A stretch of DNA of 64,000 nt from Bdellovibrionota bacterium (lineage in GTDB: Bacteria; Bdellovibrionota_C; UBA2361; OMII01). The notes under the pieces were generated by a model. The model saw only the letters and a list, made by a program, of their open reading frames with translations, did not search any database and had not been told where the DNA came from. The DNA lies in contig JBILFA010000005.1 of NCBI GenBank assembly GCA_044351795.1, positions 351-64,350 on the forward strand, written 5' to 3'. The position numbers and the translations under genes were made by a program. Below, piece after piece: positions 21,071 to 51,513 of this stretch (position 1 is the first letter of the stretch; each line of letters begins with the position of its first letter).

Positions 21071-22300
21071 TCAGAGCGCCGATAACGGTATGTGTAGCAC
21101 ATTAGGTGTCAACCAGAAGCAATCCTCCTGCGCCGAGATAACTACGCCGGGGCCTTTTGCCCCATGGATCTGAAGGAACCGCTGAATACCTTGAGCGTCC
21201 GCTGCAGAAGGCTGTCCAGTCAATTTGCACTCGATTGGGATCGTCATGTCTGAGGTTAGCTCAACTACGAAATCAACCTCATCGCGCTCACCAGAGCGCC
21301 AGTGATACACAGGCGGTCGAATCCCTTCGCGACTAAGCAGCGCAAACAGGGCGTGTGCACAAAGAGTTTCAAAGGCCGCGCCAAAAGAGGGAGACTCACG
21401 CGCCAAGTCACTTGCGCGAAAGCCAAGGAGATGTAGTAGCAGCCCACTATCACACAGGATCAATTTAGGTCGCTTAACCTCGCGCTTGGTTACTTGCCGC
21501 GAATATCCCGGAATTCGGCGTATCACGAAAGCCGCCTCGAGCACCGACAGCCAATCGTGAATCGTACCCTGAGGTATACCTGAATCGCGAGCCAATGCTT
21601 CTACGTTTAACAATCGCGCAGATGTATTAGCCACGAAACGCAAGAACCTTTCAAAGCGCCCGAGATCCGATATCTCGGCCAGGTCGCGCAGATCTCGAGT
21701 TAGGAATGTTTGAATATAATCGCTTAGACGTTGAGCTACCGTGGCATCATCAGGGCTGTGCTCAGCAAGCACCATGCGCGGAAATCCACCTCTAAACACC
21801 ATATCTGCTGGCGGGAGCGGCCACGGGAAGCGACGACCGACCGGTGGGCTTTGCAACCACTCTGCGAGTGAGTTCGGAGTCTGTTCATCGGCACGGAGCT
21901 CGCTGGGAGTCATACCTGAAAGCTCCAAGATCCCAACTCTGCCAGCTAGCGACTCGGACACCTCCTTCATCATCTGTAGGGGCTGCGAACCGGTGAGGAT
22001 GATCTCGCCCCGCCCAGGATTATTTTGGTCAATAAGATCTTTAAGCTCCAGAAAGAGCTCCGGCACTCGCTGAACCTCGTCAAAGATGCAGGGGGGCGGA
22101 TGATTGCGTAGGAACAGCGCTGGGTCGCTTCTAGCTTCAGAGACAATTCCTGCCCGGTCGAGCAGAACCCACTCGTGCCCCGGGAAGGAGTGTCGCACCA
22201 GTTCGGTCTTGCCCACCTGGCGAATACCGGTCACCAGAACGCAGCTATACATCCCTGCAAGTCCGCGCAGCCTAGGCTCTAGAGTTCGCTTGTAGTACAT
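21071..22300 (-). CDS. AAA-family ATP-binding protein with DUF4143-type C-terminal domain
   Basis: 409 aa with a P-loop-like VLVTGIRQVGKT. The overall layout matches stand-alone AAA+/DUF4143 proteins. Confidence 0.8.
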   Translation of the reverse strand: MYYKRTLEPRLRGLAGMYSCVLVTGIRQVGKTELVRHSFPGHEWVLLDRAGIVSEARSDPALFLRNHPPPCIFDEVQRVPELFLELKDLIDQNNPGRGEIILTGSQPLQMMKEVSESLAGRVGILELSGMTPSELRADEQTPNSLAEWLQSPPVGRRFPWPLPPADMVFRGGFPRMVLAEHSPDDATVAQRLSDYIQTFLTRDLRDLAEISDLGRFERFLRFVANTSARLLNVEALARDSGIPQGTIHDWLSVLEAAFVIRRIPGYSRQVTKREVKRPKLILCDSGLLLHLLGFRASDLARESPSFGAAFETLCAHALFALLSREGIRPPVYHWRSGERDEVDFVVELTSDMTIPIECKLTGQPSAADAQGIQRFLQIHGAKGPGVVISAQEDCFWLTPNVLHIPLSAL

Positions 22301-23520: not shown

Positions 23521-24303
23521 TTATGTTGTTTCTACCTCTTCAATATATAAATGAGCACTATAATTTCCATCATTAATCTCACAGGAGCTAAGGGAACTAC
23601 CTCGATATCCAATCCCAATACTATGCACACCAGCTGCCAAGCCAGAAATTACTCCCGTCACGGTTGCAGGATGAGAAGTTGTTGCATTAGCCTCAAAGGT
23701 TCCAAAAGTAGCAGTTCCCCCACCGGCTGAACTAAAGCTTGGCAAAACTACTCCATCCAGGCTTCTTGAATTTACCAAAAGTGAAATATCACAAAAGCCT
23801 GAATTTGTGCTGTCATTTACAAGAGTAACATGCGAACTAAGGGTCAATTTAAGTTTGCTGGTACTTGAGATTTTAGTATAATTGCCGACACTTCGAAGAA
23901 GGCGATGACCAAAATCAAAGATTGTTCCTGTGGAGCTTTCACCAAAAATTAAGGCTGTTAAATTAAGCGAACTCGTCCCTCGAGCGCCTTGCGGTCCTGC
24001 AGCTCCCTGTAGTCCTGCAGCTCCCTGTAGTCCTGCAGCTCCCTGTAGTCCTGCAGCTCCCGCAGTCCCCGTGGCCCCCGTGGCCCCCGTGGCCCCCGTG
24101 GCCCCCGCCGGGCCTGCAAACGTTGCACTATTGGCAATTAGGGAAAAGCCCTTAGGACATTTTTCTCCAATTACCTGCTTTGATGATAGCGAAAGTTTAC
24201 CATTCTTGTTCAGGATCTTAGTACAAATAAGATCAGCACTAGCTGTATCAATAAAACAGGGCAGTATGCCCAAACAAAATAAGATTTTTGCAAAATATTT
24301 CAT
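23521..24303 (-). CDS. Secreted collagen-like triple-helix repeat protein with globular C-terminal domain (BclA-like organisation, tentative)
   Basis: 260 aa with a signal peptide (MKYFAKILFCLGILPCFIDTASA) and 15 uninterrupted G-X-Y triplets (GPAGATGATGATGATGTAGAAGLQGAAGLQ...GPQGARG). A ~150-aa Ser/Thr/Gly-rich domain follows. Confidence 0.8.
   Translation of the reverse strand: MKYFAKILFCLGILPCFIDTASADLICTKILNKNGKLSLSSKQVIGEKCPKGFSLIANSATFAGPAGATGATGATGATGTAGAAGLQGAAGLQGAAGLQGAAGPQGARGTSSLNLTALIFGESSTGTIFDFGHRLLRSVGNYTKISSTSKLKLTLSSHVTLVNDSTNSGFCDISLLVNSRSLDGVVLPSFSSAGGGTATFGTFEANATTSHPATVTGVISGLAAGVHSIGIGYRGSSLSSCEINDGNYSAHLYIEEVETT
23995..24108. repeat. Tandem DNA repeats inside the collagen-like gene (18-bp unit x ~3.5, then 9-bp unit x ~4)
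   Basis: tcctgcagctccctgtag is repeated head-to-tail from 23995. Then ccccgtggc is repeated from about 24067. Confidence 0.9.
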
Positions 24304-24582: not shown

Positions 24583-24722
24583 TCCCACATACTTGACCCC
24601 AGTTTTGGCTAGGTCGATCCCACATAACCGACTCCAGTTTAGGGGGGTCGGATCCCACATAGATGAACCCAGTTAGAGGGGGGTAAATCCCACATAACTG
24701 AACCCACTTTTAGGGGAGAAAG
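24583..24722 (+). repeat. Four head-to-tail 35-bp direct repeats (TCCCACATA-N9-12-CC(A/C)(G/C)TTT-AGGGG...)
   Basis: Units start at 24583, 24618, 24653 and 24688, each beginning TCCCACATA. The period is exactly 35 bp, and the array ends at the IS256 terminus. Confidence 0.9.
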
Positions 24723-26152
24723 ATTAAGCAACCTTCTTTCTGTAAATTGCAAAAGTATCGTCATTAGCCATAGTTGATTTCTGTCGTTGTCCCATGTGGA
24801 CGTAAGGCATCTTGAGCTGCAGCCAGTCCTCGTGAATCTCGATGAGGAGCGCTGAGACGAGCCGTAGGCAGGAAGCGGAGTTGGGGAAGATGGTTGCCAC
24901 CCGAGTTCGCCGCTTGATCTCCCGATTCACAAGCTCCAGCCCGTTAACCGTTCGTAGCTTTCGATGAAAGTCACGCGGCAGTGCATAGATTGCAAAGCAC
25001 TCCTCAATGTTCTCCTCGAGGAATCGGCACCACTCGGGAGCGGTCTTGTGGTAGCTCTCGATAGTGGCACGGAGTCTTTGGCGGGCTTCTTCCTTGGTAA
25101 CGCAGCTGAAGATGTCCCTGAGCGCCTGTCCGAGCTCCTCTCGCAGGTGTCGCTTGGGGATGTAACTCTGTGCGTTCTGTGCGAAATGAAATTGGCAGCG
25201 CTGCCAGGGAACGTTGGGAAAGATAGCTTTGCGCGCAGCCTTCATCCCGGCGTGATCGTCACTGACGACAAGCTCTACCCCGTGCAGACCGCGCTGAGTG
25301 AGTGATTGCAAGAACTCTCGCCAATGAACCTCGGCTTCCGAAAAGGAGGTTGAGACACCCAGTACCTCTCGCTGTCCTTTGAGGTTAATCCCTATGGCGA
25401 TGAGCACTGCATGATCGATGACCTCGTCGTTATGACGAACGCTCTCGTATCGTGCGTCGAGCAAGATGTACGGAAAGCACCCGAGCTGACGGGTTCGGAA
25501 CTTCTCGAGCTCGTCATCCAAGACCTTCGAGACCCTGGATACCTGGGTAGAAGATATGTCGAGCCCGCAAAGAACCTCGGTTATCTCGGTGACCCTCCTT
25601 GTAGAGACCCCATTTACGTACATTTCGGCTATCGCAAGCTTTAGCGCTCGTTCCGACCGGATTCCCTTCTCAAGGCTCTGAGGATAAAACGAAAGCCCGC
25701 GAACCTGCGGAATCTCCACCGTAATAGCCCCCATTCGGGTCTGTATGGTCTTAGGTTTGAACCCGTTGGCGTATCCAGTGCGATCAGGCGTGCGCTCATA
25801 CAGGTCCGCCCCAAGCGCCTCCGCCCGTTCCACCTTCATCGCTTCATTGAGAAGCTTTTGGAACACTTCCCGCATCGAATCAGTACCGTTCGATGTTACT
25901 AGTTTCAAAAGCTTCAGGCATCAGCGTATCGTTTCCTTTAGTCGAGGTCATCGTAAGCTCCTTCATCAGAGTTGATTTGTTGCAAATCAACGATGACCTC
26001 GACTTACTTTTCGTTCCGGAAATCCTCAGTCAGCGCCAAATTTACGCTCCCCGAGCTCCGCCGCGCTTCGCTTCGCGGGGGCTTTTGATTGCCCCCCGCT
26101 CAGCGCGGCTCCTTACCAATTCCGGAATTTACAGAAAGGATGGTGCACTATC
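24722..26152 (-). mobile_element. IS256-family insertion sequence (~1.43 kb)
   Basis: Imperfect terminal inverted repeats are centred on ctttctgtaaatt (24736-24748) and aatttacagaaag (26126-26138). They enclose a Mutator-type transposase gene. I saw no matching target-site duplication. Confidence 0.75.
24724..25908 (-). CDS. IS256-family (Mutator-type) transposase
   Basis: 394 aa. YILLDARYESVR, AIGINLKGQREVLG, LVVSDDHAGMK and WQRCQFHF are typical of IS256-family DDE transposases. Confidence 0.92.
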   Translation of the reverse strand: MKLVTSNGTDSMREVFQKLLNEAMKVERAEALGADLYERTPDRTGYANGFKPKTIQTRMGAITVEIPQVRGLSFYPQSLEKGIRSERALKLAIAEMYVNGVSTRRVTEITEVLCGLDISSTQVSRVSKVLDDELEKFRTRQLGCFPYILLDARYESVRHNDEVIDHAVLIAIGINLKGQREVLGVSTSFSEAEVHWREFLQSLTQRGLHGVELVVSDDHAGMKAARKAIFPNVPWQRCQFHFAQNAQSYIPKRHLREELGQALRDIFSCVTKEEARQRLRATIESYHKTAPEWCRFLEENIEECFAIYALPRDFHRKLRTVNGLELVNREIKRRTRVATIFPNSASCLRLVSALLIEIHEDWLQLKMPYVHMGQRQKSTMANDDTFAIYRKKVA

Positions 26153-26214
26153 AAAGGCGCTCCTATCGGAAACCTCACCTCTCAGATATTCACCAACATT
26201 TATCTAAATGATTT
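26152..26214 (+). repeat. 63-bp exact duplicate of an internal segment of the DGR reverse transcriptase gene
   Basis: 26152-26214 is identical to 28852-28914, which encodes KGAPIGNLTSQIFTNIYLND. It lies immediately next to the IS256 right end. Confidence 0.9.
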
Positions 26215-26453
26215 GCACTGTAGCGGGGCTACCTTTTCACGCGGAAGGTCGCAAGCAATGATCCGTCTTAGGTGAATTCTGTCAGAAACACTCGGTTTCT
26301 GAAGTGTCATGTACCAAGCCCCAGCCACCCCATCCCGTCCGATCCCGACAGGTGCAGACAAGCGCATTAGCAGCTTTTTTGCTTAGCGCACAGGCACTTG
26401 GTACCCTTTCATTCCAGCGGACTAACTAAGAAAACTTAGAAAGAGCATAGGCT

Positions 26454-27131
26454 ATGATCAGCAATAATACTTCTCCTGTGGCGGGAAACTTTGATACCTC
26501 TTCTGGCTCTACCAATCTTGGCACCTCGACTTACGGAGTGGGGGTTACTGGCGTAGAGGACTGGACGAGCGTTTCTTTCCCAGTACCGCAAGCTACCGCT
26601 GCTCTCCCCGAGGGGACCATCAGCGAGCAGGTAGTAAGCAACCAAGGGTCGGGTCAAGCGATTAGCACAACCCACGGCTTTAAGCAGGGCAGAGCCCCCG
26701 ACGACACAGCTGCTATCGAGGTAAAGATTACAAGACCTAACGGGGAAGAAGTAACATGCCTACTCTCTGAAGGAGCTAAGGGTAAGGTGTACAGTCAGCT
26801 CGCGACCTATGGAAAAAAAGATCTCAAAGGAGCAACCCTCCTCACACACGATGACTTTAAGGCCGTGGTAGACAGTCTCTATAGCGCAATTAAGGGCTAC
26901 ACAGCGGTTAAGGACGCTCTCCAAACAGAAGATCAAGCTCTTCAACAAGCATATATAATAGTGACAGAAGGTGTGCGCAGGGCCGGAGGTTTCTCGTGGG
27001 CCAAATTCGATTTGGATAGCGGGGGTGCCGTTGTTGGTCGGCGCGTTAATGACCACGACCTCTACTGGCGCGACGGCAACACTCGCTTCTGTTGCGCTGC
27101 GTTTGTCTCCCCGCCTGCGGAATCAAAATAA
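26454..27131 (+). CDS. DGR variable (target) protein, small, VR at extreme C-terminus
   Basis: 225-aa ORF. The last 35 codons are the VR, and the reading frame puts every TR/VR difference in the first two positions of AAC/AAT template codons. Confidence 0.8.
   Translation: MISNNTSPVAGNFDTSSGSTNLGTSTYGVGVTGVEDWTSVSFPVPQATAALPEGTISEQVVSNQGSGQAISTTHGFKQGRAPDDTAAIEVKITRPNGEEVTCLLSEGAKGKVYSQLATYGKKDLKGATLLTHDDFKAVVDSLYSAIKGYTAVKDALQTEDQALQQAYIIVTEGVRRAGGFSWAKFDLDSGGAVVGRRVNDHDLYWRDGNTRFCCAAFVSPPAESK
27018..27122 (+). repeat. DGR variable repeat (VR)
   Basis: 105 bp aligning without gaps to 27593-27697. There are 13 mismatches, all where the other copy has A. Confidence 0.92.
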
Positions 27132-27227
27132 TTTGATCGTTGATCATTGGTTTCTTGATCCCCTCCGCAAGGAGGGGTTGGGGCCATTGATCATTGGTAC
27201 TTTGATCGAAAAATTTTCTACTTTAGC
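27126..27227 (+). repeat. Post-VR module: GC hairpin (27160-27177) flanked by five TTGATC motifs; copy 1
   Basis: The hairpin is cccctcc-gcaa-ggagggg. TTGATC occurs 5 times in about 80 bp. The module is roughly 90% identical by eye to 31475-31575. Confidence 0.85.
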
Positions 27228-27368
27228 CGCTTCCACTGGTCTGCTACCCTTTGAGTTACCTTGGGTAATGACAAGGCGGCTAAGGCTTCCGTGCACCTAA
27301 GGGCTGTTCCCACAGTAACGTCAGTAGGAGAAATCCGCTGTAACTGCCAGAGTCGTTGCGTCCCGATG

Positions 27369-27392
27369 AGAGGCGGCGTAGCCGCCTCTTTT
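27369..27392 (+). terminator. Rho-independent terminator candidate downstream of DGR target gene
   Basis: agaggcggc-gta-gccgcctct forms a 9-bp GC-rich stem followed by TTT. Confidence 0.6.
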
Positions 27393-27592
27393 AGATTCAA
27401 CGAGCGTGCAGAACTGTGATGGGAGCAGCAATTCTTGTCCAAGTCTCGTGAGGGGATCTTGTTGGTTGGTATCGGATGATACCAAGGTCGAAAAGCGTAG
27501 CTAACGGCACCGCAACCCCTCCGAATTAAATTCAACCGTGAGAACCGTGTAAGCGCTCAAATGGTGGTGGGTCCGTAAGGGCTTGGGCAAAG

Positions 27593-27697
27593 AGCGGGGG
27601 TGCCGTTGTTGGTCGGCGCGTTAATGACAACGACAACAACTGGAACGACAACAACAATCGCAACAATTGCGCTGCGTTTGTCTCCCCGCCTGCGGAA
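27593..27697 (+). repeat. DGR template repeat (TR)
   Basis: This is the invariant, Asn-codon-rich copy (..aat gac aac gac aac aac tgg aac gac aac aac aat cgc aac aat tgc..). It is not part of a credible ORF. Confidence 0.92.
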
Positions 27698-27773
27698 CTG
27701 CTGTCTCCCCCTTTTTTACCTCTGCCGAACGCTCTTTATCCACCCTCCAAGCATCCGCCTTCGCCCTTCGGGG

Positions 27774-28100
27774 CTACTGCGGACAGGTCCGTCCTATCTC
27801 ATCGAGCCGTTCTTGGAGCGAGACGACCTTCTTCAATGGAAGGACCTTTATATCGACTGCAAGTCGGATAAACATCCGCAGCATATCAACCTCTGCGGCA
27901 AGACGAGTCAAATTCTGCGCTCTCTGCTCACACGGGAGGTATCCCGCATGAACAAATCCCTCTAACATCTGAAGGGCGGTCGCCTCAACACGGCGCCAGA
28001 GGCTGTACCGCTCCATCTTGGGTATGCCTTTTTGTAGGTCGTGTAAGGCCCGGTAGAGCTCATACGTTTTGGCGATGATGGGAATGTCTAATTGCTGCAT
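27774..28100 (-). CDS. avd: DGR accessory variability determinant (Avd-like four-helix-bundle protein)
   Basis: 108 aa from the ATG at 28100. MQQLDIPIIAKTYELYRALHDLQKGIPKMERYSLWRRVEATAL...LDEIGR fits the Avd / 23S-IVS four-helix-bundle pattern (PKxERYxL). The listed longer ORF (to 28208) has an unlikely Arg/Ser-rich extension. Confidence 0.75.
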   Translation of the reverse strand: MQQLDIPIIAKTYELYRALHDLQKGIPKMERYSLWRRVEATALQMLEGFVHAGYLPCEQRAQNLTRLAAEVDMLRMFIRLAVDIKVLPLKKVVSLQERLDEIGRTCPQ

Positions 28101-28133
28101 AGTCCTCCTTCTGTGACGGTTTCGACTAGAAAT

Positions 28134-28303
28134 GGTCTCCAAAGTAGCTCCGTCGCGAGGGCAACGAGATGAGGAGCGAAACGAGGAAAGCGAGCGAAAA
28201 AACCGCAAGTGTATCCCCTGAGATACAGTGAGGATTTTTTCGTGAAGCTTGACGAAGTTGCAGCCCCATCTCGTTGCCCGCAGTAGGAGATACTTTGGAG
28301 ACC
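28134..28303. other. 170-bp bipartite inverted repeat (two perfect 13-bp helices) in the avd-RT intergenic region
   Basis: 28134-28146 pairs with 28291-28303. 28159-28171 pairs with 28267-28279. Together they enclose a ~95-nt purine-rich loop. Confidence 0.8.
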
Positions 28304-28324
28304 AGTTCGAATATATTCGACGAA

Positions 28325-29353
28325 ATGATCTCTCCCGAGCGCCTTTTTGAGGCGTGGTACGAGTTTAGGAAAGGGAAGGGGAACCGCTGCGACGTTCAAG
28401 AGTTTGGTCGGCACGCAGAAAAGCACATCTTTCGACTGCATCGTGACCTTGCTTCAGGAACGTATCGGCACTCTCCGTACGAGTCGTTCTTTGTGCACGA
28501 TCCAAAGAGGCGACACATCAGAAAAGCCTGTGTGCGCGATCGTCTCGTACACCATACGCTCCACATGACCCTACGCCACATCTATGAGCCACGGCTTTAT
28601 AGCGGTGTCTATTCCAATCGTATCGGCAAGGGTACTCACCGGGCGGTAAATGCGTTGCAGCGTGCAGTTTGGAAGGTGAGCAAAAACCTCACACACCCCT
28701 GCTGGGCGCTAAAATGCGATATCAAGCGCTTTTATGACTCAGTAGACCACGAGATCCTAAAAGAGACCCTGGCTAGGGTGATTCATGATGACCGAGCGCT
28801 TCTTCTCTTAGAGCACGTTATCGATAGCTTTCACGTAGAAGGTTCCGTTGGCAAAGGCGCTCCTATCGGAAACCTCACCTCTCAGATATTCACCAACATT
28901 TATCTAAATGATTTTGACCAGCACGTTAAACACGTGCTTCGAGTAAAGCACTATCTCCGGTTTGCTGACGATTGCCTCTTCATTGCCCCTCATCGACAGG
29001 AGTTAGAGGAGCTGCTACCGAAGATTGAAGAGTTTTTAGCCCTACGGCTGAAGCTTGCGCTTCACCCTGACAAGGTAAGCATACGGCCCCTAAATCACGG
29101 TATCGACTTCTTAGGTATCGTGGTGCATCCATTTCGCCGCACGCTCAGAACAACAACCAAGCGCAGGATGCTTCGAAAGTTGACCGAAAGGCACGGGGAG
29201 GCGTTTAGAGGAGAGATTGATTCAGACTCACTTCATCAGTCGCTTCAGTCGTATCTTGGGATTTTGTCACATGTTGATGGGCATGGGCTCTCCACACTTC
29301 TTAAAAACGGCTTCTTTCTGTTCTCTCCATACCGAGGTGGTATTGTCTCGTGA
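28325..29353 (+). CDS. DGR-type reverse transcriptase
   Basis: 342 aa from the ATG at 28325 (the listed ORF starts at TTG 28274). It has the IGNLTSQIFTNIYLNDFD motif characteristic of DGR RTs, an FADD catalytic box and N-terminal LFEAWYEFRKGK. Confidence 0.92.
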   Translation: MISPERLFEAWYEFRKGKGNRCDVQEFGRHAEKHIFRLHRDLASGTYRHSPYESFFVHDPKRRHIRKACVRDRLVHHTLHMTLRHIYEPRLYSGVYSNRIGKGTHRAVNALQRAVWKVSKNLTHPCWALKCDIKRFYDSVDHEILKETLARVIHDDRALLLLEHVIDSFHVEGSVGKGAPIGNLTSQIFTNIYLNDFDQHVKHVLRVKHYLRFADDCLFIAPHRQELEELLPKIEEFLALRLKLALHPDKVSIRPLNHGIDFLGIVVHPFRRTLRTTTKRRMLRKLTERHGEAFRGEIDSDSLHQSLQSYLGILSHVDGHGLSTLLKNGFFLFSPYRGGIVS

Positions 29354-29422: not shown

Positions 29423-29770
29423 ATGGAAGTTCTCCGAAAAGCTTTAAAGATCTATCAGCGCGAAAACGGAGATCTCCCTTTCGTGAGATGGATGAGGGGG
29501 CTGCGAGATGTCCGAGGAAAGCAAGCGATCGAGGCACGGCTTGCTCGTGTTCGTTTGGGAAACCTTGGAGACCATCGCCCGGTCGGGGATGGTGTCACGG
29601 AGCTGCGGTTCTTTATTGGTCCAGGCTACCGTGTCTACATCGGCCTCGAAGGCGATACCGTTGTGATCCTCCTTTGTGGTGGTGATAAAGGCTCTCAGGA
29701 TGGCGACATCGAAACGGCGAAAGCATTTTGGAAAGATTACCAGAGGAGCAAAGCGTATGAAAACGGTTGA
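29423..29770 (+). CDS. Type II toxin, HigB/RelE-superfamily addiction-module killer protein
   Basis: 115 aa. RLGNLGDHRPVGDGVTELRFFIGPGYRVYIGLEGDTVVILLCGGDKGSQDGDIETAK matches the addiction-module killer family pattern. Confidence 0.85.
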   Translation: MEVLRKALKIYQRENGDLPFVRWMRGLRDVRGKQAIEARLARVRLGNLGDHRPVGDGVTELRFFIGPGYRVYIGLEGDTVVILLCGGDKGSQDGDIETAKAFWKDYQRSKAYENG

Positions 29771-30062
29771 TTACGATGAGTATCTAATCGCAGAACTTAA
29801 AGATCTTGAATATGCAGCCGGTTACTTAACGGCCTGCCTCGAAGAAGGTGCAGATGTGTTTCTGGAAGGAATTAGAAACGTCGCCCTAGCTCAAGGCGGG
29901 ATGAAGGCTCTCTCCGATGCCACTCGACTCAATCGTGAAAACCTCTATGACATGCTCTCAAAGGAGGGCAATCCACGTCTCTCAAGCCTCACTACGATTC
30001 TCTCTCAACTAGGTATGGAGGTATCGTTCAAGCCAAAGATGCAGGGAACGGATGCGGCTTGA
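29757..30062 (+). CDS. Type II antitoxin, HigA-family addiction-module antidote (HTH)
   Basis: 101 aa from the ATG at 29757, overlapping the toxin stop by 14 nt. YDEYLIAELKDLEYAAGYLTACLEEG...NRENLYDMLSKEGNPRLSSLTTILSQLGMEVSFKPK matches the antidote family. Confidence 0.85.
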   Translation: MKTVDYDEYLIAELKDLEYAAGYLTACLEEGADVFLEGIRNVALAQGGMKALSDATRLNRENLYDMLSKEGNPRLSSLTTILSQLGMEVSFKPKMQGTDAA

Positions 30063-30171
30063 ACAGGATAGTGGCGGTAGCTGTCGCCTGCTGTAGCGGT
30101 TTTCCTGAGCGCCTGTTGAGGTCTTGGATGGCTTCATTCAGTCTGATCGTATCTTAGAAGTAAGGCCTACC

Positions 30172-30630
30172 ATGAGTAACTTTGACGATTTCAAGGATAT
30201 GCCCGAAGATCGATTCAGCCGCTCCGCCATCCTGCTTCAAGTGATTGATGGGGACACGCTCGATGTTGAGCTCGATCTTGGATGGTCGATGAGGCTCAAG
30301 GAGCGGGTTCGTCTCGAGCGAGTCGATACCCCCGAAATAAAGCGAAAGGAAGAGTGCGATGCTGCTATCTGGGTAAAGGAAGAAGTAGAAAAATTACTCA
30401 AGCCAGGAGCACCTCTGGTCATCACCTCCATGGCTTACGACCGAACAGGTCAAGTGCGTGGAAAGTTTGGAAGAACGATGGCCGTCGTGTATCGGGCAGA
30501 AGATGGTCTTTGCATCAACAGGTATCTTATTGAACAAAAGATCGCCTGGATTACAAATGAACGTGGGAAACTCCTTCAAGACCGCGACCTGTCTCTACTT
30601 ATAGGGATACCACTAGCTCGTAGACCTTAG
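30172..30630 (+). CDS. Thermonuclease (SNase-like) family protein
   Basis: VIDGDTLDVELD...RVRLERVDTPE is the staphylococcal-nuclease-type motif. I prefer the ATG at 30172 over the listed TTG at 30124. Confidence 0.7.
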   Translation: MSNFDDFKDMPEDRFSRSAILLQVIDGDTLDVELDLGWSMRLKERVRLERVDTPEIKRKEECDAAIWVKEEVEKLLKPGAPLVITSMAYDRTGQVRGKFGRTMAVVYRAEDGLCINRYLIEQKIAWITNERGKLLQDRDLSLLIGIPLARRP

Positions 30631-30634
30631 GGGT

Positions 30635-31177
30635 TTACCAGCCTGTATACAGGGAAGGATCGTGAGGATGTGGGCGAAGAGGGAGCGTCTGCTGACAATA
30701 TTTCAGTACGTTTTTACTGAAAGCGATCGGCCTTGAATTCGCGGCCTTCCCTAGTTCCCTCGAGAGTTTTTCAAAAACAACCTCCTTGCAGTACTGGATG
30801 ATGGAAATGTCCGTATTCCCGGGGGGATTTGAGGCATCGAGCCCTTCTGGTGTATCCATCTTGATGCCGTGCCGTTTGATTGCTTTCTCAAGATCGTTTG
30901 ACAGCTTAGACATCTCGCCTTGAGTGATGCAGGGGTATTCCTGAATCGCTTTAATCCCCAGATGCGATTGAACCCCATTCTTGTAAGCCTTATCGATGGC
31001 ACGATCGATGGTTTTTACCCCGCTACAGCACTTCTGCTGCCCAACGAGGTTATCCGCAGAGATGTAGTCGCAGATCCGTCGCTCGTCCCAGGGGCTAGTC
31101 TGTGGAACGTAGTCCTGGCTGTGATCTGTGTACGGGACAGGCTGGGAAGTTTGGGCAGTGATGGCACTTGGCGTCAT
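30635..31177 (-). CDS. Hypothetical protein
   Basis: 180-aa ORF convergent with the nuclease gene, with no recognisable motif. Confidence 0.5.
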   Translation of the reverse strand: MTPSAITAQTSQPVPYTDHSQDYVPQTSPWDERRICDYISADNLVGQQKCCSGVKTIDRAIDKAYKNGVQSHLGIKAIQEYPCITQGEMSKLSNDLEKAIKRHGIKMDTPEGLDASNPPGNTDISIIQYCKEVVFEKLSRELGKAANSRPIAFSKNVLKYCQQTLPLRPHPHDPSLYTGW

Positions 31178-31440
31178 GGAATTATCTCCTCTTGTCTGAG
31201 TTAAGCTGATGGAGCGTCAAAGACACGCCCGGAACTGTCCCTGATAATCGGATACTAGAGCGAATAGTTTCGTGGTAATGGCCAGCTGTTATTCGCGTAC
31301 TAGCTGCGTAGTACAATGGCGGCGCTAGTTGAAACAGAATTGCTAATTCTGTTTCACATAACGCACTTTCCAAATCGTATCGGCGTATACGCGGGATCGA
31401 AAACCGCTCTAACAAATCGTATTCATTGATCCAGCAGTAA

Positions 31441-31575
31441 TGTTGCTGCGTCTGGCTCTCCCTCCCCGGAATTAAAATAATTTGATCCTTGGGTCTTGGT
31501 TTCTTGATCCCCTCTGAAGGAGGGGTTGGGTCCATTGATCATTGGTCCTTTGATCGAAAAATTTTCTACTTTAGC
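31441..31575 (+). repeat. Second copy of the VR-tail plus post-VR hairpin/TTGATC module, without an intact upstream ORF
   Basis: 31475-31575 is about 90% identical to 27126-27227. 31441-31474 is a diverged match to the last ~35 nt of the VR. The hairpin is kept with a C-G to U.G change. Confidence 0.85.
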
Positions 31576-49198: not shown

Positions 49199-49309
49199 GG
49201 CGGAGAGGTAAAACCACGCAGACGCGTGATTTTGTAATGTGGGGGAACCCTCGGCCACAGCGCACACTTTTTACTAATTGACTTCACACTAGTGATCCAG
49301 GTACGAAGC

Positions 49310-49475
49310 AGATGATTGCGAGCGCCAGGGAAGAACGGTGTAATTCCGTCGCGGTCCCGCCGCTGTATCTGGGAGAGCCCCCTCACACAAGCCCACTGTT
49401 CCGGTTTTTATGTGGAATGGGAAGGGGAGGGAGCGAGTAGCCCAGGAGCCAGAAGACCTTCTCGCAATGATGAGC
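49310..49475 (+). promoter_or_regulatory. Cobalamin (B12) riboswitch
   Basis: The P1 helix pairs attgcgag (49315-49322) with ctcgcaat (49461-49468). The conserved core is AGGGAA..CGGTG.AATTCCG..GCGGTCCCGCCGCTGTA...GCCCACTG...GGGAAGG, with a B12-box-like AGCCCAGGAGCC. It lies upstream of a TonB-dependent receptor gene. Confidence 0.8.
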
Positions 49476-49509
49476 CCGAGTATTCGGCTGTCATCCGGAA
49501 CGTACCCTC

Positions 49510-51513
49510 GTGGATTGGGGCACGTATCCGACGAGTTACTGTCCATCGTCTAGTATCAGCGGAGCGCGTGTGCCATCACGAGCGTCAACCCTTGCCCGCA
49601 GTTGTGGGCTACTACTCTTTCTCGCCGTCTTTCAGGCCGGATCCCGACAAGGGCATGCTGACCAGGGCGGTACGGACCCTATCACTACGACGCCGATTAT
49701 CGTCAGTGCCAGTCGAATAGAGACTCACGAAGCCAACGTCGCAAGCTCGGTGTCGACGGTGACTGAGGAGGATATCGACGATGGGCAATATGTAAATGTG
49801 ACAAACGCAATCGAACCCGTTCCCGGCCTTGAGGTCGTGCAGAGCGGTGGGCCCGGCGGCACAGCGGTCGCATTCATAAGGGGAGCTAACAGCGAACACA
49901 CGTTAGTGCTTCTGGATGGGATAGAGCTCAACAACCCTGCGTCTCCCAATCGAGCCTTCAACCTGACCAATTTGACCTTGGAAAACATAGAGCGGATCGA
50001 AGTCTTACGAGGGCCGCAGAGCTCTCTGTATGGTTCTGACGCGATGGGCGGAGTTATCAACATCATCTCCAAAAAAGCTCAGGATGGGCTGCAAATGACT
50101 CTGCGATCTGAGGCCGGTTCCTACAACTCATTCACGCAGGTCGGAAACCTCTCGTATGGGAGTGACTGGATACAGGTTTCCAACGGAGTCACTCGACAAG
50201 ATATCGGAAGTATCTCGTCTGCAAGCAGTCGTGACGGCAACTTCGAACACGACGGGTATGAAAATACTTCGCTCTCTAACCGCGTAAAGATTCTGCCCTC
50301 TGAGTTTATCGATCTGAACGTCAGTACTCGCTACGATCGTTCGAATGCGGCACTCGACAATGCCGGAGGAATCGGTGGAGACGATCCAAACCGACGCTTC
50401 AACAACGAGGAGTTTTTTGTACGGGGTGAAATGGCAGGACACCTGCTCGAAAAGACACTTACTCCCTCTCTCTCACTTGCGTATTCTCACCACGATCTCA
50501 GTGACACGAACGACCCCGACCTGTCCTCCACGGAGTTCCTTCGTTCCGATTATAAAGGAGATCTTCTCAAGCTACAAAGCGTCACGAACTGGAGCCCGGT
50601 GCGGGATTTCTCCGCTGTTCTCGGGGCTGAAACTGAGCGTGAGCGAGCTGACTCCTACTACCTTTCTGACGGACTGTATGGGCCGTATGAAGAAGCGTTG
50701 CAAGGGCGAGATGCGAGAACGAATGCGATCTTCAGCGAGGCACGGGTCTCCTACGACAAGCGTGCATATGTCGATCTTGGCGGAAGACTCGATGATCACT
50801 CTCGCTTCGGGACGTATAAGACCTGGAAGGTCGCACCGGCATACCTGCTCGACGACGCCACGAAGCTCAGAAGCTCAGTCGGTACCGGCTTCAAAGCCCC
50901 TTCGCTCGTGCAGCTGTACTCCAGCTACGGGAACACGGAATTGCGACCAGAGGAAAATGTGGGATGGGACGTGGGTATCGATCGACAATTAATCAAAGAT
51001 CGGTTGTCAGTGTCGCTTGCCTACTTCCACAATTACTTTGACAACCTCATCTCGTTTGACCCGAACACGTATATTCTCAATAATATTCGCAACGCTGAGA
51101 CGAGCGGCTGCGAGGTGTCAACGGACCTTACGCTGACCGAAAGCTTCTCAGTTCGGACTGCGTACACCTATACCGATTCGCAGGATGATGAAACAGGCGA
51201 ATCGCTGCTTAGGAGACCTCAGAACAAGGCCACTGTGACGCTGGTGTACCTCCCCACTTCACGGGTCAAAACTCAGCTTCAATGGAGAGGTACCGGCAGG
51301 CGCTTCGATATCAACTACTCCGGCAGCGAGCCGGAGCGTATCAGCCTGGGGGGATACGGCACGATTAACCTGACACTCTCTTACCAACTCTCAGAAACGG
51401 TAGAGCTCTTCTCGCGAGTCGACAACTTATTCGACAAGGAATATGAGGAGGTGTACGGTTTCGGGACTATGGGAGCCGCTGCGTACGGTGGAATAAAGCT
51501 TGCCTTGTACTAA
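49510..51513 (+). CDS. TonB-dependent receptor (BtuB-like)
   Basis: 667 aa with a TonB box (TPIIVSASR), a plug motif (IEVLRGPQSSLYGSDAMGGVINII) and a C-terminal beta-barrel ending in an aromatic residue. The start codon is uncertain. Confidence 0.9.
   Translation: MDWGTYPTSYCPSSSISGARVPSRASTLARSCGLLLFLAVFQAGSRQGHADQGGTDPITTTPIIVSASRIETHEANVASSVSTVTEEDIDDGQYVNVTNAIEPVPGLEVVQSGGPGGTAVAFIRGANSEHTLVLLDGIELNNPASPNRAFNLTNLTLENIERIEVLRGPQSSLYGSDAMGGVINIISKKAQDGLQMTLRSEAGSYNSFTQVGNLSYGSDWIQVSNGVTRQDIGSISSASSRDGNFEHDGYENTSLSNRVKILPSEFIDLNVSTRYDRSNAALDNAGGIGGDDPNRRFNNEEFFVRGEMAGHLLEKTLTPSLSLAYSHHDLSDTNDPDLSSTEFLRSDYKGDLLKLQSVTNWSPVRDFSAVLGAETERERADSYYLSDGLYGPYEEALQGRDARTNAIFSEARVSYDKRAYVDLGGRLDDHSRFGTYKTWKVAPAYLLDDATKLRSSVGTGFKAPSLVQLYSSYGNTELRPEENVGWDVGIDRQLIKDRLSVSLAYFHNYFDNLISFDPNTYILNNIRNAETSGCEVSTDLTLTESFSVRTAYTYTDSQDDETGESLLRRPQNKATVTLVYLPTSRVKTQLQWRGTGRRFDINYSGSEPERISLGGYGTINLTLSYQLSETVELFSRVDNLFDKEYEEVYGFGTMGAAAYGGIKLALY

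Follow-up and report, generated by a model that had tools for sequence, protein, structure and literature searches.

We analysed a 64,000-nt stretch of DNA from a Bdellovibrionota bacterium (NCBI GenBank assembly GCA_044351795.1, contig JBILFA010000005.1, positions 351 to 64,350 of the forward strand), hereafter the window, to whose positions all coordinates refer. The window, essentially a 64.8-kb metagenomic contig found in NCBI as well as JGI, carries ordinary chromosomal genes and, at 26454-29353, a diversity-generating retroelement (DGR). In this cassette a target gene with a variable repeat (VR) is followed by a non-coding leader, a template repeat (TR), an avd gene in the opposite orientation and a reverse transcriptase (RT) gene. 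Its features are as follows.

26454-27131, plus strand: target gene, 225 aa, with VR at its 3' end
27018-27122, plus strand: VR, containing the variable codons 199-204, 206-210 and 212-213 of the target gene
27092-27122, plus strand: VR 3' end resembling an initiation of mutagenic homing (IMH) sequence; G+C-rich stretch of 31 nt shared without change with the TR 3' end (27667-27697), its only A residues being those of the terminal GAA
27160-27177, plus strand: candidate GC-rich hairpin or cruciform, 37 nt after VR; CCCCTCC-GCAA-GGAGGGG, inside an outer inverted repeat
27187-27592, plus strand: conserved non-coding leader from the VR hairpin to TR; candidate 5' part of the DGR RNA
27593-27697, plus strand: TR, with 26 A (ten AAY codons, three GAC codons, the first codon AGC with 1 A and the final GAA with 2 A)
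27774-28100, minus strand: avd, 108 aa, between TR and RT; 116-120 aa in relatives
28325-29353, plus strand: DGR RT, 342 aa, with the motif IGNLTSQ

Pairwise alignment of TR with VR covered 105 nt without a gap. We found 13 mismatches, each of which has A in TR and C, G or T in VR; with 26 A in 105 nt, the hypergeometric probability of this outcome is P = 7.4e-10. Within the window the pair gave a BLAST E value of 1.7e-31, and no further TR copy was found besides VR. The exact alignment of both intervals therefore bears out the first-pass annotation, which had described a gap-free pair with mismatches at template adenines, and none of the 13 lies at a non-adenine TR position, the observation that annotation had named as speaking against a DGR. 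VR corresponds to codons 189-223 of the 225-codon open reading frame and is in frame from codon 189. Each of the 13 changes affects the first or second position of an AAY codon (aac to cac, ctc, tac, cgc, ggc or ttc; aat to act or tgt). Eight of nine AAY codons had been counted as changed; the eight are correct, but the total is ten, so that two are unchanged, and three GAC codons also carry a mutable A.

VR and TR part company directly after GCGGAA. The reading of the VR 3' end as IMH-like follows Wu et al. (PMC5758913). The hairpin that lies downstream has a DNA fold z of -3.36, and in relatives its stem is invariant while its loop is GCAA, GCTA, GTAA or carries an insertion. By homology with BPP-1 (mtd-avd-TR-brt), the mechanistic prototype of these elements, we infer that the IMH-like end and the hairpin would have the roles of their BPP-1 counterparts.

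We found that the protein encoded at 28325-29353 contains the RT motif PIGNLTSQIFTNIYLNDF and matches Pfam RVT_1 (E 4.9e-20). RTs of the DGR clade are marked by (I/V/L)GxxxSQ in place of the group II QGxxxSP, and placement was by PDB match scores. The best solved-structure match is the BPP-1 DGR RT, bRT (8ub7, E 7.6e-36, 127 bits), compared with 77 bits (E 1e-20) for a group II intron RT and 55 bits for a retron-type RT. The RT with a DGR-specific motif that had been proposed is thus confirmed, and by PDB scores it lies no nearer to group II or retron RTs. The Avd-like gene was likewise recovered. Its product scores 53.1 bits against Pfam bAvd PF22296 (cut-off 40) and 69.8 bits against NCBIfam DivGenRetAVD, under that model's cut-off of 80; to the earlier description we add that avd lies on the minus strand and is truncated at its C-terminus. 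In every locus compared avd adjoins the RT gene.

The order target/VR(+), TR(+), avd(-), RT(+) corresponds to architecture B3, TR-(avd)-RT. The same order was found in five closely related DGR loci (L003, L005, L007, L009 and L010) and in eight more distant ones (L014-L016, L018, L019, L022, L055 and L056), all of them with A-specific mismatches of TR and VR. Wu et al. 2018 (PMC5758913) found B3 in 90% of the DGRs of candidate phyla radiation (CPR) bacteria and nearly nowhere else. In 11 of the related loci we counted the TR/VR mismatches that fall on a TR adenine:

L003: 18/20
L010: 16/16
L005: 12/12 substitutions, plus 3 gap columns
L014: 11/11
L015: 13/16
L016: 10/10
L018: 12/13
L019: 15/15
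L022: 14/15
L055: 11/11
L056: 11/13

These counts bear on a different explanation of the locus, in which the 105-nt repeat arose by ordinary duplication or gene conversion and the RT is that of an unrelated group II intron, retron or defence system. The top NCBIfam matches for the RT are indeed group II, Drt and retron RT models, though all score far under their cut-offs. However, an unrelated RT does not account for 13 of 13 mismatches at adenine (P = 7e-10) with the same bias repeated in the 11 related loci, for an adjoining Avd in every locus or for bRT as the best structural homologue. Furthermore, Rfam gave nothing at gathering threshold in the DGR region and nothing at E <= 1 in 27100-28350, hence no match to an intron RNA or a retron non-coding RNA. 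We regard this explanation as refuted by these four observations, with a negligible chance of being correct. Against the DGR identification itself we found no serious evidence.

Assemblies from other samples contain the same target gene with other VRs. In a 90%-identity cluster, three 225-aa target alleles from different samples are identical except at 13 positions within residues 199-213, and two of them, P0192 and P0193, differ from the window protein only at residues 199-213. Among the alleles W205 (TGG) and R211 (CGC) are invariant, and neither codon contains A; the GAC codons of TR, each with a mutable A, do vary among the population variants. We also compared an independent assembly (L017, an ENA contig) with window positions 26195-27375 and found 16 differences in 1181 nt, of which 15 lie in VR, all at TR-adenine positions, and 1 lies elsewhere. 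Because the P0192 contig encodes the same truncated 108-aa Avd as the window but carries a different VR, diversification post-dates the Avd truncation. A hypervariable block, GRRVxxxxxxWxxxxxRxxCAxF, is common to 35 further members of the target family. VR has therefore undergone recent, population-level diversification in a natural population. It had been suggested that the element was active at some point, and a search for population heterogeneity restricted to the AAY-derived codons had been proposed as a check; the first is strengthened to recent activity, and the population comparison is positive in the three alleles and in L017. We are very confident that the element is a genuine, complete and recently active chromosomal DGR of architecture B3, with the order target/VR, leader, TR, inverted avd and RT.

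By homology with BPP-1, a plus-strand RNA containing TR would be copied by the RT together with Avd, template adenines would be miscopied during cDNA synthesis, and the cDNA would replace VR at the 3' end of the 225-aa gene. Recoding of ten AAY and three GAC codons in this way could yield about 15^10 x 4^3, or roughly 4e13, proteins.

Several insertions and rearranged segments were found in and around the cassette.

27756-27789, no strand assigned: insertion of 34 nt resembling a repetitive extragenic palindromic (REP) element; absent from L003, L005, L007 and L010; changes the Avd tail from MLGGWIKSVRQR to TCPQ
28127-28311, no strand assigned: palindromic insertion of 185 nt, near-perfect, resembling a miniature inverted-repeat transposable element (MITE); terminal inverted repeats 28129-28151 and 28286-28308
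24722-26152: IS256-family insertion sequence (IS) element, with the transposase encoded at 24724-25908 (minus strand); its terminal inverted repeats are imperfect and it lacks a target-site duplication
26152-26214, plus strand: RT fragment of 63 nt, 100% identical to RT 28852-28914 (the IGNLTSQ region); abuts the right end of IS256
31439-31575, plus strand: remnant of a second VR end, comprising a VR 3' end, hairpin and downstream conserved block; 97% identical over 33 nt to the TR 3' end of L009

Two of these may weigh against a fully functional cassette. Compared with all relatives, Avd is truncated at its C-terminus by 8-12 residues and has lost the conserved 12-residue tail MLGGWIKSVRQR, and the 185-nt insertion, a palindrome with a hairpin energy of -94.8 kcal/mol, splits the avd-RT intergenic region; either could impair the element. 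It is conceivable that the cassette is a decaying and now inactive relic, silenced after the VR changes by the MITE, the REP-like element in avd and the nearby IS256. The 185-nt insertion is absent in five of five close relatives, in which the avd-RT spacer is 13-44 nt, Avd lacks its conserved tail, and past rearrangement of the region is evident from the RT fragment and the remnant VR end. In contrast, the contigs from other samples with the same 108-aa Avd but a different VR, and the single non-VR difference in 1181 nt beside 15 at TR-adenine sites, point to very recent diversification, and the RT and target reading frames are intact. We therefore consider a relic improbable and retain the reading of a recently active element.

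The 185-nt palindrome behaves like a MITE, and a relative of it lies at another site in L009 (6809-6993). REP-like units (...GCCAAGGCTACGNCNGACARG...) occur at differing places in related cassettes, including the loop of the VR-proximal hairpin in L003 and L009; the window has one copy. The 63-nt RT fragment, 100% identical and abutting IS256, implies that an RT copy was recently rearranged in association with the IS. The remnant at 31439-31575, into which no open reading frame leads, matches the TR type of L009 and not the window's own TR, while the adjacent target of L009 carries the window's VR type with a non-cognate TR. This suggests that TRs or whole cassettes may be swapped by recombination in the conserved flanks.

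Directly left of IS256, at 24583-24716, lie three overlapping 64-nt copies at 35-nt spacing, which correspond to about four 35-nt units (TCCCACATA..CCAGTTT.GGGG) that are 70-73% alike.

We aligned the window with L003, L005, L007, L009 and L010 and found that the leader (27187-27592) is better conserved than the adjoining coding DNA. Blocks of the leader are still recognisable in the eight more distant loci, whose RTs are only 53-67% identical. A small leader-encoded protein was considered and ruled out: relatives differ by 1- and 2-nt indels, and therefore the leader holds no conserved open reading frame. RNAalifold and single-sequence minimum free energy folding predicted three helices, Pa, Pb and Pc, whose 5' strands all lie upstream of TR.

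27402-27412, plus strand: helix Pc 5' strand, GAGCGTGCAGA; pairs with 27721-27734
27421-27434, plus strand: helix Pb 5' strand, GGGAGCAGCAATTC; pairs with 27695-27709; proposed equivalent of the BPP-1 spacer (Sp) primer strand
27435-27445, plus strand: helix Pa 5' strand, TTGTCCAAGTC; adjoins Pb directly; suggested counterpart of the Sp strand in the 'cPRT Stop' duplex
27446-27579, plus strand: leader inner domain, candidate RT-binding part
27466-27485, plus strand: inner-domain hairpin, TTGGTATC-GGAT-GATACCAA
27521-27543, plus strand: universally conserved A-rich stretch, CCGAATTAAATTCAACCGTGAGA
27580-27590, plus strand: helix Pa 3' strand, GGCTTGGGCAA; ends 2 nt before TR
27695-27709, plus strand: helix Pb 3' strand, GAACTGCTGTCTCCC; last 3 nt of TR and the next 12 nt
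27721-27734, plus strand: helix Pc 3' strand; in relatives the same DNA is antisense of the last avd codons

Pairing was counted for 35 pairs on an anchored alignment of 14 loci, with 500 shuffles and a slid-register control. Standard pairs filled 93.6% of cells compared with 84.9 +/- 0.8% in shuffles, and 16 pairs were changed on both sides compared with 7.8 +/- 1.6; for neither measure did any of the 500 shuffles reach the observed value. In slid registers 40-52% of cells were paired. Across the 14 loci Pb (13 bp) is 96.2% paired with 5 covarying pairs and Pa (11 bp) is 97.4% paired with 7, so that compensatory changes affect 12 of the 24 pairs of the two helices. Within Pb, C27698 stands opposite a conserved mismatch and T27704 is bulged. 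L022, from an assembly labelled Peregrinibacteria, has a completely different Pb sequence and the same Pa/Pb arrangement.

An unbiased scan was also made for a bipartite strand, one whose first part pairs with the TR 3' end and whose second part pairs with the 25 nt preceding TR. The best such strand lies upstream of TR in nine of nine canonical B3 loci, at -121 to -217. When BPP-1 was scanned, its known Sp 43-71 strand was found downstream and ranked second; the top-ranked candidate is an artefact of the Avd-binding hairpin. Because the avd stop codon in relatives is only 6-21 nt from the TR end (6 nt in L019), no space is left downstream of TR for a non-coding spacer.

Other features of the leader were also noted. 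A terminator-like hairpin at 27370-27388 (GAGGCGGC-GTA-GCCGCCTC) followed by TTTT, up to 27392, lies inside the leader 10 nt before Pc; it is present in close relatives and absent in L014 and L015. A further pairing, of GGTGGTG (from 27563) with ATCCACC (from 27740), was rejected, as it showed no covariation and the variable positions of the second motif are the wobble positions of the opposite-strand avd codons MLGGWI. A scan of IMG/VR with the leader motif gave 32 matches, all attributable to chance and none with a complementary trailer.

The arrangement of Pa and Pb resembles that in BPP-1. Handa et al. (bioRxiv 10.1101/2023.10.23.563531) reported that in BPP-1 the template:primer duplex is made up of the Sp strand and TR 117-129, that this strand, 2 nt farther on, enters the 'cPRT Stop' duplex together with a segment just upstream of TR, and that TR is looped out between both duplexes. 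In the window, two adjacent duplexes that bracket TR on one continuous strand, in the same 5'-to-3' order, are predicted from sequence. The two elements also share adenine-specific transfer from TR to VR, the RT clade (8ub7 as best PDB match, the IGxLTSQ motif) and a bAvd-family Avd. In both, the target gene carries VR at its 3' end, the repeats finish with an invariant G+C-rich stretch, and VR is followed by a GC-rich hairpin with a 4-nt loop.

In contrast to the phage-borne BPP-1, the window element is chromosomal, without a relative in IMG/VR, and its avd is inverted and lies between TR and RT. About 18 nt of non-coding sequence follow TR, compared with a 140-nt spacer in BPP-1, and the duplex-forming strand lies about 150-170 nt upstream of TR, whereas that of BPP-1 lies 3' of it. 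A BPP-1-type spacer RNA 3' of TR, with primer and Stop strands and Avd- and RT-binding stem-loops, was not found in the window. IMH and IMH* are identical within the window repeat. No BLASTP-level similarity was found between the window Avd and BPP-1 Avd, and none was detectable between the window target and Mtd.

The covariation suggests an RNA scaffold upstream of TR, in which the strand 27421-27445 would form two stacked helices, Pb and Pa. TR would then be looped out between a primer-like duplex (Pb) and a Stop-like duplex (Pa), with the organising strand 5' of TR. Priming would occur near C27434/T27435, the first template nucleotide would be near G27694, and cDNA synthesis would terminate before 27590, at helix Pa. 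The helix ends and the predicted start and stop points are within 3 nt of the TR/VR homology boundaries. A circular permutation of the DGR RNA appears to be the simplest reading of the topology in the window. We found no published description of such an upstream-scaffold layout in the literature searched, the coverage of which was incomplete.

Several observations count against this permuted RNA. The folding-energy z is only -1.40, so that energy alone gives the RNA structure no support, and of 120 shuffled leaders 4 have a bipartite score at least as high as that observed. The pair counts are circular, in that they were made on the very sequences that had yielded the structure, and the L022 anchors were picked by complementarity. 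Opposite-strand avd codons (MLGGWI) account at least in part for the Pc 3' strand and the trailer motif ATCCANCCNCCRAGCAT, and a spacer-like RNA could come from the antisense-avd sequence 3' of TR. The terminator-like hairpin with its TTTT stands inside the leader, and a promoter and terminator scan gave nothing convincing for the DGR RNA and identified no promoter.

These points lend some weight to a reading in which the leader is no RNA scaffold. Its conservation would instead reflect a promoter or operator, a terminator of the target gene or recent horizontal spread, and the true spacer-like RNA would lie 3' of TR as antisense avd. The weak thermodynamic signal is consistent with this, as are the terminator-like hairpin and a promoter-like conserved AT-rich block at 27187-27224. 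Avd coding conserves the sequence 3' of TR in any case, and therefore an RNA role there is undetectable in the present analysis. In addition, Handa et al. report duplexes between upstream and downstream sequences in CPR DGRs with only 40 nt upstream of TR; as their survey used only these 40 nt, it was blind to a strand about 150 nt upstream. However, such a reading has to contend with compensatory changes in half of the Pa/Pb pairs and 96-97% pairing across loci whose RTs are only 53-67% identical, with a Pb that is wholly different in L022 yet paired, with helix ends that match the homology boundaries, and with an avd stop codon 6 nt from the TR end in L019, which leaves essentially no non-coding 3' spacer. 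We judge it rather unlikely.

The protein that is diversified was also modelled and searched. The target is predicted to be disordered over residues 1-68; these are followed by a compact alpha/beta domain of 157 residues (69-225), for which AlphaFold2 gave a model with pLDDT 90.9 and pTM 0.88. The target has no Pfam or NCBIfam match. None of 35 family members matches a C-type-lectin-related Pfam family even at E <= 1, the family profile found nothing relevant among PDB sequences at E <= 10, and hhalign of the target with Mtd gave a probability of 0.3%. Foldseek was run with full-length and trimmed target models against PDB and BFVD. The best PDB match had E 0.17 with TM <= 0.26, although the loop-rich C-type-lectin fold can escape Foldseek, and no BFVD match was better than E 0.2. 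The family is tiny and unannotated, with 38 representatives among 1.84 billion clusters. In one member, P0157, the domain is fused to a Ser/Thr kinase. IMG/VR contains no relative of the target protein.

Like the known C-type-lectin variable proteins (Mtd, TvpA, AvpA, TaqVP; the Pfam DUF1566 and FGE-sulfatase types), the target has its variable residues within the last ~35 residues and AAY-rich TR codons spaced by invariant W, R and C residues. No sequence, profile or Foldseek match of the target to that fold was found. Its secondary-structure order, beta-alpha-(beta)-alpha-beta-beta-beta-[VR]-beta, may be compatible with a minimal C-type-lectin core. Roux et al. (PMC8144416) considered that uncharacterised VR domains are probably divergent C-type-lectin folds.

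Taken jointly, the RNA and protein results lead us to a tentative proposal, to which we give somewhat less than an even chance. The B3 DGR RNA, in the window and in the CPR elements, would be a circular permutation of the BPP-1 RNA, with the organiser strand and the RT-binding domain 5' of TR and a helix of the RNA 5' and 3' ends in place of the Avd-binding hairpin. Priming would take place at about C27434/T27435 and copying would start at about G27694 and stop at Pa; the variable protein would not be a recognisable C-type-lectin fold.

The surroundings of the cassette contain several further features. A type II toxin-antitoxin pair (29423-30062), comprising an HI1419/HigB-like RelE/ParE toxin and an HI1420/HigA-like antidote, lies directly after RT, and the DGR relatives L014-L016 and L055 also lie beside toxin-antitoxin modules, resolvases, integrases or conjugation genes. 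The DGR is further accompanied by a gene resembling staphylococcal nuclease and by a 180-aa gene without annotation (30124-31177), both of which occur also in L009 (1630-2852), in another order and orientation. In L005 the RT gene is directly followed by sequence matching window 31197-31290, so that the window, compared with L005, has extra genes at 29423-31177, namely the HigB/HigA pair, the nuclease gene and the 180-aa gene. Three DGR loci of this clade that otherwise differ have an AAA_14/DUF4143 ATPase gene no more than a few kb away (window 21071-22300, L018 4167-5342 and L019 1-859). On the minus strand, 23521-24303 encodes a 260-aa protein with collagen-like GAT/GLQ triplet repeats, and its DNA has exact 18-nt tandem repeats at 24000-24061. 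Farther away, a TonB-dependent receptor gene (49510-51513) has a cobalamin riboswitch upstream (49303-49479; Rfam RF00174, 84 bits), an ordinary btuB-type arrangement.

A close comparison is with the B3 DGRs of CPR bacteria (Wu et al. 2018, PMC5758913), in which the core genes are ordered as in the window. The source records of RT homologues at 51-57% identity carry the names Peregrinibacteria, Peribacteraceae or Paceibacterota, and the Peregrinibacteria-labelled L022 shares the Pa/Pb arrangement. In contrast to those elements, the window host is not a CPR bacterium: the nearest DGR loci are in metagenome-assembled genomes labelled Bdellovibrionota, and the window has a normal Gram-negative gene complement. 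The target family also differs.

Because tens of thousands of DGRs have been catalogued, the window DGR alone adds little. Its value is as a compact example of B3, the class that is dominant in CPR bacteria. To our knowledge no mechanism has been studied in the B3 class. Its variable domain, 157 residues that are confidently modelled and for which no structural relative was detected, is relevant to the question of whether DGRs are restricted to C-type-lectin scaffolds, and the domain could serve as a small engineerable binder scaffold. The covariation-supported prediction of where the primer and Stop duplexes would lie in an element without a 3' spacer makes the generality of BPP-1 cis-priming directly testable.

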